A stretch of 64,000 nucleotides of DNA. Source: Acidobacteriota bacterium (GTDB taxonomy: Bacteria > Acidobacteriota > Aminicenantia > Aminicenantales > Saccharicenantaceae). Position 1 is the first letter of the stretch. Every line of letters starts with the position of its first letter. Where the stretch lies: assembly GCA_028749205.1 (NCBI GenBank), contig JAQULR010000006.1, forward strand, positions 6,678 to 70,677, given 5' to 3'. The position numbers and the translations under genes are program-made. Positions 5,288 through 54,140 of the stretch are shown one piece after another. Below the pieces are notes generated by a model. It did no database searches. It had not been told where the DNA came from and saw only the letters and a list, made by a program, of their open reading frames with translations.

Positions 5288-5342
5288 AAGAAAATCGGGA
5301 GATGATACGATTTTATTAAATCGATTCGTGCCCCTAATTTTC
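5288..5342 (+). repeat. short form (copy S) of the dispersed structured repeat family
   Basis: The sequence AGAAAATCGGGAGATGATACGATTTTATTAAATCGATTCGTGCCCCTAATTTTCC carries the 5' arm (GGGA.ATGA.ACGATTTT) and 3' arm (AAATCG.TTCGTG.CCC + T-rich tail) of long copies A/B, joined by 3 nt. It forms a hairpin followed by a U-rich tract. Confidence 0.6.
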
Positions 5343-5438
5343 CTCTGGAGGAGGAAAATAAGCCAGGTTGGCTTAGATTAGTTACGAATAATCCAGGTCA
5401 TTTATTGGAAGATAATTCTTAAATGAAAGGATAGGGCC

Positions 5439-6746
5439 ATGAACAGGGTAATTTTGTTGGATTTCGAGGAAAAAGACAAAGAATATCTTGAACAGGAAAA
5501 AATAGACACCTTCCTCATCCATACTTCTGATTTCGCCAGCCTGCCTACAATTCTGCCAGAAGCTCAGGCTATTTTTTATCAAATGAACTGGCCGGTAGAA
5601 GAGGAAAATATCCCTACAGGTCTGGCCGAAAAGATCCAGGAAATGGTCACCGACGGGGCGCGAGTTATCTGTTTTATTGGCAAGGGCCATCTTTATCAGT
5701 TAACAGGGGTCATCGGCAATTTTCCAGATATTCATCTTCAGGAATGCCCTCCTGGAGAACAGCTACTGGTTAATCCAGAAACCACCTATAATCTACTCTT
5801 TGAAAAATACTCCAATGACCTGGCTTATATGTATCAACTGCTACCGACTTCTTTTGGAGCGGAGGCCTGGGAAGTTCCGGCTACCAGAAATGATAGCTGG
5901 AAGATTGTGGCTAAAAATTTAGCTGGCTACCCGGTTTCTCTGATTATTAGAAAGGGTCAGGGCTTTATCTGGTTGCTGCCGTGGTTTGGGCAAAATAACA
6001 TAAAGGTGGCCGACTTTATTCTTAAAGACATATTCCCGTTGATGGAGATGAAAGGAAAAGAGTTGGAACAGATAGACTGGATAGATAAAGAAGAGTATCT
6101 GTTCCCGGAAATAAAGGAACTTTTCCTGAAAAAAGAACAAGAAAAGAAAAAATTTGAAGAAAGAATTAAGGAATTAGATGAGCAGATTAAAAACTTACGC
6201 GAAACTCAGCAGGAAGTTTTTAACCGTCTATTAAAGGCTGAAGGACAGGAGTTGAAAGCCGCCGTAGCTCAGGCTTTCAAGTATTTGAATTGGGGAAAAG
6301 TGGTGGATGTCAGTGAATACTGGAAAAATGTCATCAGAGACAAAGAAGAAGATTTCTGGCTGATAGATAATACCGAGCAAACTATTGAGGTCTGTTTGAG
6401 GAAAGAGTTCTTGGTATTGATTATTGTCAGGAGCGGCCGAAACTGGGCTACTGACGATGATTGTATGCTCCTGCAGAGGGTAAAAGGTCGGCGGATGCAG
6501 GAGTTTGACAACACCAAGATGAAAGCTGTCTTAGTAGGGAATTATTTCAACTTGCAGGAAGCCAGATTAAGAAATAATCCCTTTTCTCAGCTCCAGATGG
6601 AAGAGGCAGAAAAAGACGGTAATGGGCTCCTGACTACTTATGAGCTTTTTAAAGCCATCAAGGCCGAAAAAGAAGGTCTGATAAGCAAAGAGGATATTAG
6701 AAGGCAGTTGAAAGAAAAGGCCGGTTTATTGCAATTTTCTTGGTGA
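5439..6746 (+). CDS. hypothetical three-domain protein (alpha/beta N-domain, coiled coil, restriction-endonuclease-like C-domain)
   Basis: 435-aa ORF with no competing frame. It has alternating beta/alpha hydrophobic periodicity at the N-terminus and a KE-rich heptad stretch KKEQEKKKFEERIKELDEQIKNLRETQQE. The C-terminal layout (EEDFWLID ... LVLIIVRSG ... KAVLVGNYF ... GLLTTYELFKAI) resembles Mrr_cat/PD-(D/E)xK folds. No family was recognised with certainty. Confidence 0.7.
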   Translation: MNRVILLDFEEKDKEYLEQEKIDTFLIHTSDFASLPTILPEAQAIFYQMNWPVEEENIPTGLAEKIQEMVTDGARVICFIGKGHLYQLTGVIGNFPDIHLQECPPGEQLLVNPETTYNLLFEKYSNDLAYMYQLLPTSFGAEAWEVPATRNDSWKIVAKNLAGYPVSLIIRKGQGFIWLLPWFGQNNIKVADFILKDIFPLMEMKGKELEQIDWIDKEEYLFPEIKELFLKKEQEKKKFEERIKELDEQIKNLRETQQEVFNRLLKAEGQELKAAVAQAFKYLNWGKVVDVSEYWKNVIRDKEEDFWLIDNTEQTIEVCLRKEFLVLIIVRSGRNWATDDDCMLLQRVKGRRMQEFDNTKMKAVLVGNYFNLQEARLRNNPFSQLQMEEAEKDGNGLLTTYELFKAIKAEKEGLISKEDIRRQLKEKAGLLQFSW

Positions 6747-6930
6747 GATAAATTACTATTATCTTTGTTTTCCAGCACCAAAAGGGGGCGGGAGAAAACT
6801 CGCGCTTCTAAGTAATCCCGTTGCCGAACCTGCTAATTGGCATTTGGATTTTTCGCTGTTTTGTGCTAATCTCAAGTCCTGACCGTAACCAGGCAGATTT
6901 CCATTATACTTCTGTATATCAGGAGCAAGG

Positions 6931-7587
6931 ATGAAAAGGACAGAAAGAAAACAGCTAAAAGAAAATGAGCTGGCTTCAGGTTTGAACCGTTTTACCAGGT
7001 GGATAAGACAACATACAAAAAAGATCAGGATAGCCGCTCTTGGCCTGGTGGCCGTCTTGGTTTTGCTGGTGGGGATTAAATACCTGTTAGATTATCAAAA
7101 AGGCCGGGAAGCCAGCTATCTGAGCGAAGTTTTAGCTCTTAAAGCTGATCTTGAGGAAAAACCAGAAAACCTGGCCAAACTGGAAAGCCTATCCCAGAAA
7201 AAAAGATATGAAAGGATGGCCAGCCTGGCCTTGGCTACATATTATCTGGAGAAAAATGACCTGGACAGAGCCGAGCAGATTTTAGTTAAGGTTAAGGACA
7301 AAGGTCGAGACCTGACTCATTATCAGATTCTTGATCTCTATGCCCAGATCCAGATAAAAAAAGGCTCTTATGATCAAGCTATAGAGATTTACCGGCAGAT
7401 AGAGAAAGAAAAACCTGGGGTTTATCCCTTGGATGTAGTACTTTTTCGGTTAGCAGAAGCTTATGAGAAACAAGGTGATAAAGAACAGGCTCAAAATGTA
7501 TATCGTGACCTACAGGCTAACTATCAGCACACCCATTATGGATATCTGGCTTCTATGAAATTAATGAACCTGGAAACCTCCAAATAG
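6931..7587 (+). CDS. membrane-anchored tetratricopeptide-repeat protein (YfgM-like)
   Basis: 218 aa with one N-terminal TM (IAALGLVAVLVLLVGI) followed by TPR-like helical repeats (ALATYYLEKNDLDRAEQIL, AEAYEKQGDKEQAQNVY). Confidence 0.7.
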   Translation: MKRTERKQLKENELASGLNRFTRWIRQHTKKIRIAALGLVAVLVLLVGIKYLLDYQKGREASYLSEVLALKADLEEKPENLAKLESLSQKKRYERMASLALATYYLEKNDLDRAEQILVKVKDKGRDLTHYQILDLYAQIQIKKGSYDQAIEIYRQIEKEKPGVYPLDVVLFRLAEAYEKQGDKEQAQNVYRDLQANYQHTHYGYLASMKLMNLETSK

Positions 7588-7600
7588 ACTCATAAGAAAC

Positions 7601-7630
7601 TTGTATATTTTGTTTATAAGGTTATATAAT
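7601..7630 (+). promoter_or_regulatory. sigma70-like promoter for the ferredoxin gene
   Basis: TTGTAT (7601-7606), an 18-nt spacer, then a perfect TATAAT (7625-7630). An AAGGAGGA RBS precedes the ATG at 7663. Confidence 0.4.
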
Positions 7631-7662
7631 AGGTCTTCAAATTATAGATAAAGGAGGAAGAG

Positions 7663-52856: not shown

Positions 52857-52893
52857 CAACAAAAATCTGCCAGCTCCGTTATAAGGTAGGTTA

Positions 52894-52921
52894 ACCTGGA
52901 TTATTTGTGAATAATTCAAGT
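52894..52921. repeat. 28-bp palindromic intergenic motif (copy 2)
   Basis: ACCTGGATTATT-TGTG-AATAATTCAAGT, with arms complementary at 10/12. A left half-site, ACCTGCGTTATT, lies at 52621-52632 on the other side of repeat copy A. Confidence 0.7.
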
Positions 52922-53262
52922 CAAACCGAAAAAGCCTTAAGAAAAATATCTTATTTCTGACAAGATATTTGTCAATAGAAATTTTTTTGCAAGCCAAAAG
53001 TTATTAGCCGGTAGCCCTTGCTTAAAGCTTCTAATGAGTTAGGGGAGCAAATATCAGGTGCTTTCTGGTGTTTAGTGACCAACCTTGCCAGATGGTCTTC
53101 TAAGAGATTTGTCCAGGCCGAGTTATTTAGATGCTTGGGAGTATTTTCTTCTGGTTGAGGGTGAATGATAATCATATTTTGCCAAAAGCTCTTGTTTTAA
53201 ATCTGACAAAGAAATAAGATTTAAAATTAATGGTCAGATGGCTTAGTGATAAGGAGGATAAG

Positions 53263-53712
53263 ATGAAGAGAAAATTATCCTTGTTTGTGGTGATTCTTTT
53301 ACTGTTTTCAATCGCCCAGGTTCAAGCTCAACAAAAAAAGTTTGGGCTCGGTATCATTCTGGGAGAGCCAACCGGTGTTATTGCCAAATACTGGACCAGC
53401 AATCGCACCGCCTTTGATGTTGCCGGTTCCTGGTCATTTTCTGGCGAGAATGCTTTTCATATTCACGGCGATTATCTTTTTCACAGCTTCATCGGAGTAG
53501 AAAAGGGTAAGTTGCCATTTTATTATGGAATTGGAGCTCGCTTAAACCTGCAAGATAAAACCAGATTTGGTATTAGAATTCCAGTCGGCTTGAGCTACAT
53601 GTTTGAAAAGACTCCACTTGACATATTTTTAGAAATCGGTCCGGTCATGGATTTGGTTCCAGATACAGAATTTCATGTTCTCGGTTTTATAGGCATCCGC
53701 TATTATTTCTGA
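53263..53712 (+). CDS. small (8-strand-size) outer-membrane beta-barrel protein
   Basis: Start trimmed to the ATG behind the AAGGAGG RBS. It has a signal peptide MKRKLSLFVVILLLFSIAQVQAQ, alternating beta-strand pattern, and a C-terminal aromatic signature GIRYYF. Confidence 0.7.
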   Translation: MKRKLSLFVVILLLFSIAQVQAQQKKFGLGIILGEPTGVIAKYWTSNRTAFDVAGSWSFSGENAFHIHGDYLFHSFIGVEKGKLPFYYGIGARLNLQDKTRFGIRIPVGLSYMFEKTPLDIFLEIGPVMDLVPDTEFHVLGFIGIRYYF

Positions 53713-53890
53713 TTATTGGGACATGATACGATTTTCCCACGCACCAGAAAGCCTGTGCTTTAGCCCAGGGATGAGTAGGAAATTCTGATAGACTTTCGGT
53801 GCGGGGTTCCGCCTTCTACAACGCGAGGACGTTACGGCCTTTAGTCCATGGAGGCTTCACTTAAATCGGTTCGTGTCCCTCGTTTCCCCA
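53711..53890 (+). repeat. long copy (B) of the dispersed structured repeat family
   Basis: It starts at the stop codon of the OMP gene and is near-identical to copy A, including the terminal arms GGGACATGATACGATTT / AAATCGGTTCGTGTCCC. Confidence 0.8.
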
Positions 53891-53984
53891 GGCACCAACT
53901 TTTTTATAAGTGATAATTAAAAACATCAAGACATATTCAGTTTTAGGAATAAGGTAGACTATAATCTGGGGTTTAGGCAACTCG

Positions 53985-54140
53985 CCAAAAATTTTCCATA
54001 AAACAGAAAGCCCTATCATTTAGTTCAGAAATCAATGGAAAATTCTGATAGGCTTTCAGCGCGGCGTTCCGCCTGTTACCATACAAGAAGGTGGTTGTCC
54101 TTAGCCGGGTGGACTTTGCTTAAAGATAAGAGAGGTAACT
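53985..54140 (+). repeat. diverged long copy (C) of the dispersed structured repeat family
   Basis: Its core GGAAAATTCTGATAGGCTTTCAGCGCGGCGTTCCGCC aligns with A/B GGAAATTCTGATAGACTTTCGGTGCGGGGTTCCGCC. The flanking blocks AGAAAGCC and CTTAAA are conserved, but the outer arms differ. Confidence 0.65.

Follow-up and report, generated by a model that had tools for sequence, protein, structure and literature searches.

A dense family of modular intergenic repeats in an uncultured Aminicenantes genus, probably MITE-like small mobile elements

What kind of sequence recurs so densely between the genes of the 64-kb stretch of DNA analysed here (the window), and does it spread as mobile DNA or act as an RNA or a regulatory site? 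A preliminary description had listed eight copies (S, E, H, D, F, A, B and C), all intergenic, all on one strand and all beside plus-strand genes. We found no description of small mobile repeats in the literature on Aminicenantes, an uncultured phylum that is frequently encountered in anaerobic digesters and in sediments. The repeats are a real, non-coding family in which several hairpin modules are combined; elements of this kind are ordinary, and the phylum that carries them has been little studied. The loci are probably lineage-specific, MITE-like, non-autonomous small mobile elements, mosaic in the way of the BIMEs of E. coli, in an uncultured Aminicenantes genus near Candidatus Saccharicenans.

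Composition of the repeat family

The eight loci resembled each other well above chance, and a single dense family of related intergenic repeats was borne out. The arm motif GGGACATGAnACGATTT matched seven times in the 64-kb window, against 0.49 matches expected. The loci were, however, not copies of one unit. A and B were 90% identical over 171 nt and shared their core with C, D and E, whereas S and F consisted of module and hairpin without the core and H of the module alone. With nhmmer, the 130-nt core was found five times (A-E), on the plus strand each time, and a module of about 55 nt eight times in the window, four of them on the minus strand (33244-33174, which is H, 42380-42317, 53967-53892 and 16442-16372). 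All members were intergenic as described, D being placed on the remnant of a decayed gene. The 64-kb window contained about 11 loci, a dense arrangement as described, and the roughly 99 kb of sequence from related genera contained none.

The elements measured 165-300 nt, occurred in multiple copies and had no conserved reading frame. Alignment of S, F, the reverse-complemented element next to pfk, A without its core and two copies from a sister species gave one consensus with inverted ends. The basic element of about 165 nt starts with a 14-bp terminal inverted repeat, CCTGGATTATTCAT, followed by the module of about 55 nt, which is an imperfect hairpin in its own right. The middle is a hairpin with 17-bp arms (GGGACATGAnACGATTT / AAATCGGTTCGTGTCCC) and an A-run and a T-run on its sides, and the 3' part consists of a GAGAATAATCTATC motif and a terminal 28-nt palindrome that holds the second inverted repeat. 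In some copies the 130-nt core lies in the loop of the middle hairpin. Copying between hairpins can also affect the arm-core-arm unit by itself, as from A to B; gain, loss and conversion were all seen among the copies. Within the core, a 45-nt block, AAATTCTGATAGnCTTTCGGnGCGGGGTTCCGCCTTCTAC, was strongly conserved, also in a further family copy from another Aminicenantes MAG, UBA1061. The mobile-element model leaves the conservation of this block between MAGs unexplained.

Gain of the elements and the nature of their ends

This lineage acquired the elements, in at least one case with a 5-bp flanking duplication, and both strands were used; the polarity of each gain event was assigned by parsimony across few relatives. 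Element A (52622..52920, plus strand, 299 nt) is complete and has a core. Its terminal repeats (52622-52635 and 52907-52920) were identical at 9 of 14 positions; between them lie the module (up to 52689), the arms (52684-52700 and 52829-52845), the core (52711-52833) and the palindrome (52894-52921). The whole element was missing from the sister species (L006), where TCAAA occurred once, as opposed to twice around A (52617-52621 and 52921-52925). This was the only clean duplication with a verified empty site. The complete, coreless pfk element (42157..42392, minus strand; module 42380-42317, 3' palindrome about 42184-42157) had been overlooked in the preliminary description. It is situated just upstream of the ribosome-binding site of the minus-strand pfk gene and has TTTAA at each flank (42152-42156 and 42393-42397), a candidate duplication in flanks too diverged to be sure. 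L013 and L014 lacked the element, with 44 nt from the zinc-ribbon gene to pfk, and no family matches were found in these two pfk loci or in L009.

Two further coreless elements lie ahead of plus-strand genes. S (5240..5398, plus strand) comprises a module match (5228-5301), a hairpin with arms at 5297-5313 and 5318-5334 followed by a T-run, and the 3' palindrome (5371-5398), and ends 41 nt before the gene start at 5439; it was also present in a contig of the same species (L015) and absent from L018. F (44416..44589, plus strand), with a degenerate hairpin, a module match at 44407-44480, GAGAATAATCTATC at 44526-44539 and the palindrome at 44562-44589, stops 37 nt short of the start of the prolyl oligopeptidase gene and was absent in L008, L013 and L014. 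Neither S nor F showed a recognisable target duplication. Element E (16184..16450, plus strand) combines a truncated module (16190-16217), an arm (16221-16237), the core (16247-16365), the second arm (16340-16356) with its T-run and an inverted module (16442-16372); its intergenic region measured 335 nt in the window versus 91 nt in the L018 ortholog. The pfk, F and E elements were all absent from orthologous sites in related genera.

The remaining loci were partial or diverged. H (33174..33244, minus strand; nhmmer E 3.3e-15) is a module with a degenerate continuation, upstream of a minus-strand GGDEF-GAF-PilZ gene (31011-33029), and its portion of the intergenic region had no conservation in L014. 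D (36716..36935, plus strand), with a diverged core (36734-36860), a 3' arm and T-run (about 36861-36888) and a GAAAATAATCTATC motif (36906-36919), occupies the truncation site of a DUF1614 gene, of which relatives have an intact version. Unit B (plus strand) begins 3 nt past the stop codon of the OMP gene and is an arm-core-arm unit, the identity with A extending across exactly 53715..53885; at this site the sister species had the hairpin alone, in opposite orientation. To its right follow an inverted module (53892..53967, minus strand; nhmmer E 6.7e-15) and copy C (54003..54124, plus strand), a core only, upstream of the HdrD-like gene (54248). C had an ortholog of about 70-75% identity in L006 and was absent in L008 and L009. 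Two solo 28-nt palindromes were found on the plus strand. The one at 8911..8938, ACCTGCATTATTTATGAATAATCCAGGT, is a 3'-terminal element remnant; the sister species (L016) had a longer 3' portion there (GAGAATAATCTATC motif and palindrome) and L018 nothing. The other (56454..56481), upstream of tRNA-Arg(CCG), was absent from the orthologous site in L006. Around these solo palindromes a duplication amounted to 1-2 bp at most. In total, the sister species gave three family matches in 18 kb.

The aligned elements had in common the 5' end CCTG(C/G)ATTATTCAT and the 3' end ATGAATAATCCAGG, and thereby possess terminal inverted repeats. The combination of 14-bp inverted ends with a 5-bp repeat suggests cutting or copying by a DDE-type mechanism. 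The 64-kb window held no transposase genes; a transposase encoded elsewhere would move the elements in trans, possibly an enzyme of the IS1380 family. ISEcp1 has CCTAGATTCTACGT as its left inverted repeat and makes 5-bp direct repeats on insertion (PMC6061673). Compared with our consensus end CCTGGATTATTCAT, CCTAGATTCTACGT was identical at 10 of 14 positions, with equal repeat and duplication lengths. In ISfinder, the IS1380 family is characterised by ends starting with CC, inverted repeats of about 14 bp and duplications of 4-5 bp, all of which were found here. The likeness to ISEcp1 may serve as a lead, although a single short comparison with 10 of 14 identities could also be due to chance. 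No IS1380-type DDE transposase gene was seen in the window or in the compared loci. The preliminary description had considered that the copies might turn out to be non-autonomous derivatives of an IS; the evidence goes in this direction, but no autonomous element with matching ends was found.

Orientation of the copies and alternative explanations

Our data did not confirm that all copies lie on one strand: four module matches were on the minus strand, among them H and the module of the complete pfk element. The statement that all copies lie beside plus-strand genes does not hold either, minus-strand members being located upstream of the minus-strand pfk and GGDEF genes. All five cores were on the plus strand (5/5), with a two-sided probability of only about 0.06, and seven of the nine members of clear polarity were on this strand. 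Orientation was nevertheless non-random relative to genes, usually being that of the downstream gene: all five clear-polarity members with same-direction flanking genes to compare (S, 8911, pfk, C and 56454) pointed with them (one-sided p about 0.03, a binomial estimate). The cumulative GC skew rose across the whole window, the plus strand being G-rich, as a leading strand would be. Minus-strand members before minus-strand genes, within this steadily rising skew, indicate that orientation tracks local transcription and not the replication strand. The tendency to share the direction of the adjacent gene would reflect selection.

This bears directly on the proposal of a strict strand bias caused by strand-specific insertion of single-stranded DNA, as for IS200/IS605-type PATEs or REP/RAYT elements, whose insertion would have a fixed orientation with respect to the fork of replication. 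The wealth of hairpins and palindromes, the plus-strand majority among members of clear polarity and the leading-strand-like G-richness would suit it. The use of both strands by complete members under a uniform skew does not, nor do the 14-bp terminal inverted repeats and the 5-bp flanking duplication. IS200/605 elements and REPs are devoid of terminal inverted repeats and of target duplication. The search for TnpA(Y1), TnpB or RAYT genes in the 64-kb window was negative as well, and we regard this explanation as very improbable. Hardly more credible is the idea that the 28-nt palindrome, ACCTGGATTATT-n-AATAATCCAGGT, is a transcription-factor operator and the family the signature of a conserved regulon instead of mobile DNA. 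A palindrome did precede a gene start or ribosome-binding site by 10-185 nt (at 5371, 8911, 42157, 44562, 52894 and 56454), but the palindrome was always the end of a larger element, the downstream genes were unrelated, and neither the sister species (56454) nor related genera had it at the orthologous promoters.

More attention is due to the view that the arm-core-arm unit is a structured RNA (a cis-regulatory leader, an attenuator, a terminator or a small RNA) whose sense orientation is kept by selection at the RNA level. Apart from the plus-strand cores and the conserved 45-nt block, which extends to UBA1061, it could invoke that B, C, D and the UBA1061 copy are co-directional with the flanking gene, that the sister species, too, has kept C ahead of this gene, that the plus strand of A folds more stably than the minus strand (-59 vs -46.5 kcal/mol; z -2.4 vs -1.7) and that one helix contains several G-U pairs. 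Rfam, however, gave nothing at gathering score or E <= 1 beyond chance-level matches: only tRNAs reached the gathering score, the best local match was to the DUF805 motif (E 0.91), and a search of element E and the UBA1061 copy yielded nothing. The RNAalifold consensus structure was almost nil. When the fold of A was imposed, 66.6% of cells could pair vs 64.5% after shuffling, with covariation of 0.151 vs 0.152, in a test of low power on only seven sequences. Minimum-energy folds varied among copies, the sister-species copy folded better on the reverse strand, and the GAAAGCC/GGCTTTC stem was degraded in the sister ortholog of C. Neighbour genes were functionally unrelated, and copies had been gained, lost and converted. 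An RNA-level function of the core, as suggested before, therefore found no support from Rfam and covariation, and we consider it unlikely.

The MITE-like elements carry promoter- and terminator-like parts. An extended -10 promoter-like site, TTGATA-17-TAYGAT, is partly embedded in the 5' arm; such sites were found in S and F (in F, TTGATA-17-TATGAT at 44462-44490), whereas in A the -35 and -10 were weak, and D, H and the UBA1061 copy had neither. The hairpins were stable (-17 to -29.5 kcal/mol), with the flanking A-run and U-run pairing and the T-run beginning 2-3 nt beyond the stem. The clearer copies had been described as ending in a hairpin plus T-run. The T-run is there, but an A-run also lies upstream, and a simple consensus terminator scan did not call the family hairpins. 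Since the upstream A-run pairs with the downstream T-run, the hairpins look alike from either strand. With a terminator-like hairpin and an extended -10 site in one cassette, the element could halt transcripts that run into it and start transcription anew in the direction of the gene that follows; such a promoter-plus-terminator role is a reading of the sequence. It seems doubtful that the core, including the 45-nt block, works as an RNA or as a module for protein recognition inside a mobile terminator hairpin and is transcribed from the extended -10 site of the 5' arm. If it did, the element would amount to a portable 'stop, restart and add a leader' cassette, rewiring the expression of any gene downstream of its landing site.

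Significance and comparison with known systems

Short-read assemblies break at the repeats, inside which several public contigs end (L004 begins within A, L015 stops at E), and MAG contiguity is impaired as a result. An element has been inserted between the zinc-ribbon gene and pfk, which in relatives are neighbours and probably co-transcribed, and together with the position directly upstream of housekeeping genes this may alter expression. The repeats could also mark populations for strain tracking and, should the design with an embedded promoter and terminator prove real, would represent a compact natural insulator cassette. The general understanding of such elements is unchanged by these findings.

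Among known systems, bacterial MITEs (Correia of Neisseria, ERIC/IRU, RUP) resemble the present family: they are short (about 165-300 nt), non-coding, intergenic and hairpin-folding, end in terminal inverted repeats, are flanked by a short direct repeat (here clear for A), differ in presence from one close relative to the next while being abundant in a single lineage, and may carry promoter-like and terminator-like signals. The family is, however, unrelated in sequence to any named one and modular in make-up, its central hairpin taking up a 130-nt insert in some copies, and no parent IS was found for it. BIMEs/REPs of enterobacteria likewise form varying mosaics of palindromic units and linkers, include solo palindromes and are strictly extragenic, but REPs are presumably moved by RAYT (Y1) transposases without inverted ends or duplications, whereas here both inverted ends and a 5-bp repeat were found. 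IS200/IS605 PATEs are also small, non-autonomous and hairpin-rich, but tied to replication in their orientation, in contrast to the use of both strands here within one stretch of uniform GC skew. With IS1380 (ISEcp1) the family shares 14-bp inverted repeats that start with CC and, in the case of A, an A/T-rich target duplication of 5 bp (PMC6061673); it differs in that no IS1380-type transposase gene was seen, and the likeness derives from one short sequence. Elements located just upstream of genes and co-directional with them would fit an outward promoter of the IS1380 type. The IS1380 family is known for such a promoter, which drives downstream genes.

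Copies and architecture of the repeat family

The preliminary description was right in claiming a related repeat family. The arm motif GGGACATGAnACGATTT, which forms the stem of the central hairpin, occurred seven times in the window against 0.49 expected (up to 3 mismatches). Repeat finding returned the 90% identity between loci A (52681-52851) and B (53715-53885), a core common to loci C, D and E too, an upstream block of about 60 nt that loci S, F and A have in common, and five occurrences of a palindrome of 28 nt. Eight copies of one unit, as had been proposed, were not recovered. 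A core HMM, searched on both strands with every filter off, yielded exactly five copies in the window, all on the plus strand: A (52711-52833), B (53743-53867), C (54003-54124), D (36734-36860) and E (16247-16365). With an HMM for the upstream module, eight were obtained, forming a different set. On the plus strand these were S (5228-5301), F (44407-44480), A (52615-52689) and a doubtful short match from a motif scan that probably lies outside the family (16480-16495). Four were on the minus strand: the copy first described as H (33244-33174), the one upstream of pfk (42380-42317), 53967-53892 and 16442-16372. The statement that all copies lie on one strand was thus valid for the five cores only (5/5, two-sided probability about 0.06) and not for the family. 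Nor do all copies sit beside plus-strand genes, the complete element upstream of minus-strand pfk having been overlooked. Unrelated intergenic short inverted repeats or palindromes were seen at 6758-6786 with 27192-27221, at 7924-7956 and at 138-157.

Alignment of S, F, the reverse-complemented pfk element, A without its core and two sister-species copies gave a single consensus of about 165 nt. It starts with the 5' end CCTG(C/G)ATTATTCAT, followed by a self-folding module of about 55 nt, the two arms of the hairpin (GGGACATGAnACGATTT and AAATCGGTTCGTGTCCC) between an A-run on the 5' side and a T-run on the 3' side, the motif GAGAATAATCTATC, the stretch AATAAAG..GGTTnACC and the terminal palindrome, which carries the 5' end in inverted form, ATGAATAATCCAGG, as its outer half. 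The paired ends of the family are CCTGGATTATTCAT ... ATGAATAATCCAGG. The 130-nt core is found within the hairpin loop in A, B, D, E and the copy of UBA1061, another Aminicenantes MAG; C is a core with no recognisable arms. S folded as DNA into consecutive local hairpins (z −5.6), and a single large foldback for S and A was discarded since their DNA folds gave local hairpins with no long stem. The energy of the central hairpin was −17 kcal/mol in S and −29.5 kcal/mol in a sister-species copy. Because the A-run pairs with the U-run, this hairpin is predicted to be stable on either strand and, in this respect, resembles a bidirectional terminator. A simple terminator scan did not call the central hairpins. 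In S and F, a promoter-like TTGATA-17-TA(C/T)GAT, with a TG upstream, reaches from the end of the module into the 5' arm.

Occupied and empty sites in relatives

Homologs of three window proteins placed the host in the Aminicenantes, near Candidatus Saccharicenans. Syntenic loci were compared from the same species (L004, L015), from a sister species with 88-90% protein identity (GCA_964496565.1; L006, L007, L016, L017) and from related genera (L008, L009, L013, L014, L018). No family member was present in the roughly 99 kb compared from the related genera; the sister species had three in 18 kb and the window about 11 in 64 kb. A scan of a genome collection with the core pattern returned one true homolog, the UBA1061 copy, which is 81% identical to B and located 3' of a decarboxylase gene, and one chance match. 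Metagenome scans with the same pattern found near-identical copies of the window and UBA1061 only, viral scans nothing beyond chance matches and plasmid BLAST with element A no match. Samples containing this population include ERZ27247324, Ga0265295 and ERZ17914141. Literature searches gave no account of repeats for either Aminicenantes or Saccharicenans. The repeats are break points in public short-read contigs, both from this species and from relatives, so that pattern scans of MAGs will undercount the family. L004 begins, at its position 1, within the 3' arm of A, L015 (position 1) stops at E, and a further contig, L020, ends near the site of the 8911 palindrome.

The 299 nt of A (52622-52920) are wholly missing from L006, where a single TCAAA stands in place of the TCAAA found on both flanks in the window. 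The spacing between the zinc-ribbon gene and pfk is 44 nt in relatives versus 291 nt in the window. The pfk element (42157-42392) occupies 236 nt on the minus strand and has TTTAA on its flanks, which are too diverged to prove a duplication. The neighboring ORF 42432-42875 (147 aa) corresponds to a zinc-ribbon gene of 105 aa in relatives, and its listed start is therefore probably too far upstream. For F, intergenic sequence aligned to L008, L013 and L014 over its conserved part, but none of the three has a counterpart of the element. The intergenic region of E measures 335 nt in the window versus 91 nt in L018. A 'partial module' at 16474-16495 was rejected as a family member: the fabH-proximal sequence is conserved in L018, which has no family, and thus represents a native promoter region. 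The resemblance of this fabH-proximal TTATTTTTGAGAAAAAAATCGGTATGAT (16470-16500) to the module 3' end may be due to chance or may hint at the origin of the promoter-like part of the module.

D occupies the site of a DUF1614 gene of 231 aa that is intact in L013 (2116-2811) and L014 (11695-12390). The remnant at 36491-36700 aligned over the 5' third of the gene only, and D fills the remainder. As to the solo palindromes, the one at 56454 was absent from L006, while at the 8911 site the sister species carries a longer 3' element portion and L018 nothing. Such palindromes are thus either residual ends of elements or elements in minimal form. The B site of the sister species holds a coreless hairpin in opposite orientation with an adjacent module; the hairpin arms in L006 (6225-6320) are flipped relative to B (53713-53890), and a partial extra arm GGGGACAGGGGCGAAAAT is present. 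The 90% match between B and A spans exactly arm-core-arm. Our guess is that B looks like an ectopic conversion between hairpins, with the arm-core-arm of A as donor in the opposite sense. C was about 70-75% identical in the sister species, no higher than the surrounding intergenic DNA, and one stem was degraded. Elsewhere, in L014 (3541-4671), an HD-domain gene lies between prmC and the 435-aa gene, where the window (29230-29606) has a 377-nt intergenic region only.

Orientation and the nature of the core

With polarity defined from module end to palindrome end, S, 8911, D, F, A, C and 56454 have plus polarity, H and pfk minus polarity, and B and E are mixed, with the core on the plus strand and an inverted module at the right. 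It had been asked whether orientation follows transcription or replication, IS200/605-type, strand-specific insertion being one explanation offered for the supposed bias. Cumulative GC skew rises over the entire window. Members of both polarities therefore share one replichore, which speaks against a coupling of insertion to the replication strand and leaves IS200/605-type elements unsupported. The link to transcription held, if modestly. All five members with clear polarity between co-directional genes (S, 8911, pfk, C, 56454) point along these genes (one-sided p about 0.03 in a binomial estimate of ours). Where the flanking genes diverge, it is the palindrome end that adjoins the gene toward which the element points, at 41 nt from the start of the plus-strand gene at 5439 and 37 nt from that of the prolyl oligopeptidase gene; in the pfk element it is found immediately 5' of the pfk ribosome-binding site.

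The other explanation offered, a function at the RNA level, found no support either when the core was examined as a structured RNA, although with few independent copies such a role is no more than improbable. Rfam was searched with the full window, using gathering scores, and with A-C, E and the UBA1061 copy, using E-value thresholds. These searches returned only tRNAs and chance-level matches, and no family for the core. RNAalifold predicted 24 pairs with five sequences and just 5 with seven. Under the constraint of the A fold, pairing in the alignment of seven sequences covered 66.6% of cells versus 64.5% after shuffling, and the covariation score, from few independent copies, was 0.151 versus 0.152. 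Minimum-energy folds of single sequences were inconsistent among copies. What is conserved in the core is a sequence block, AAATTCTGATAGnCTTTCGGnGCGGGGTTCCGCCTTCTAC, and no set of helices. A weak match to the Rfam DUF805 motif at 52676-52751 (20.4 bits, E 0.91), well short of the 51.1 gathering score, owed its score to AUGAGUAGGAAA, present in the A and B cores.

Putative mobilization and possible kinship

The family was gained in a lineage-specific manner, has inverted ends and occupies both strands; one 5-bp duplication is clean, and the family is associated with gene decay and contig breaks. A transposase encoded elsewhere would mobilize the elements in trans; none was found in the window. 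Two Pfam-less proteins of about 435 aa beside S and E were considered as hidden transposases and rejected, as they are mutually unrelated, one being BamG-like and the other matchless. The bias toward pointing with the adjacent gene would best be explained by selection on a stop/restart cassette, an inference from sequence, in which incoming transcripts could end at the hairpin and transcription may restart from a site within the 5' arm. A transcript begun there would have no 5' arm and hence would escape termination at the hairpin. The family should be useful for annotation and assembly of Aminicenantes genomes and is mildly interesting for gene regulation.

In conclusion, the repeats are a new mosaic MITE/BIME-like family of an uncultured Aminicenantes lineage, an element of a kind already known. 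A possible kinship, to be taken as a lead only, is with ISEcp1 of the IS1380 family, whose left end is CCTAGATTCTACGT (PMC6061673): 10 of 14 positions are identical to the family consensus end, and both have 14-bp ends beginning with CC and a 5-bp A/T-rich duplication (PMC6061673).
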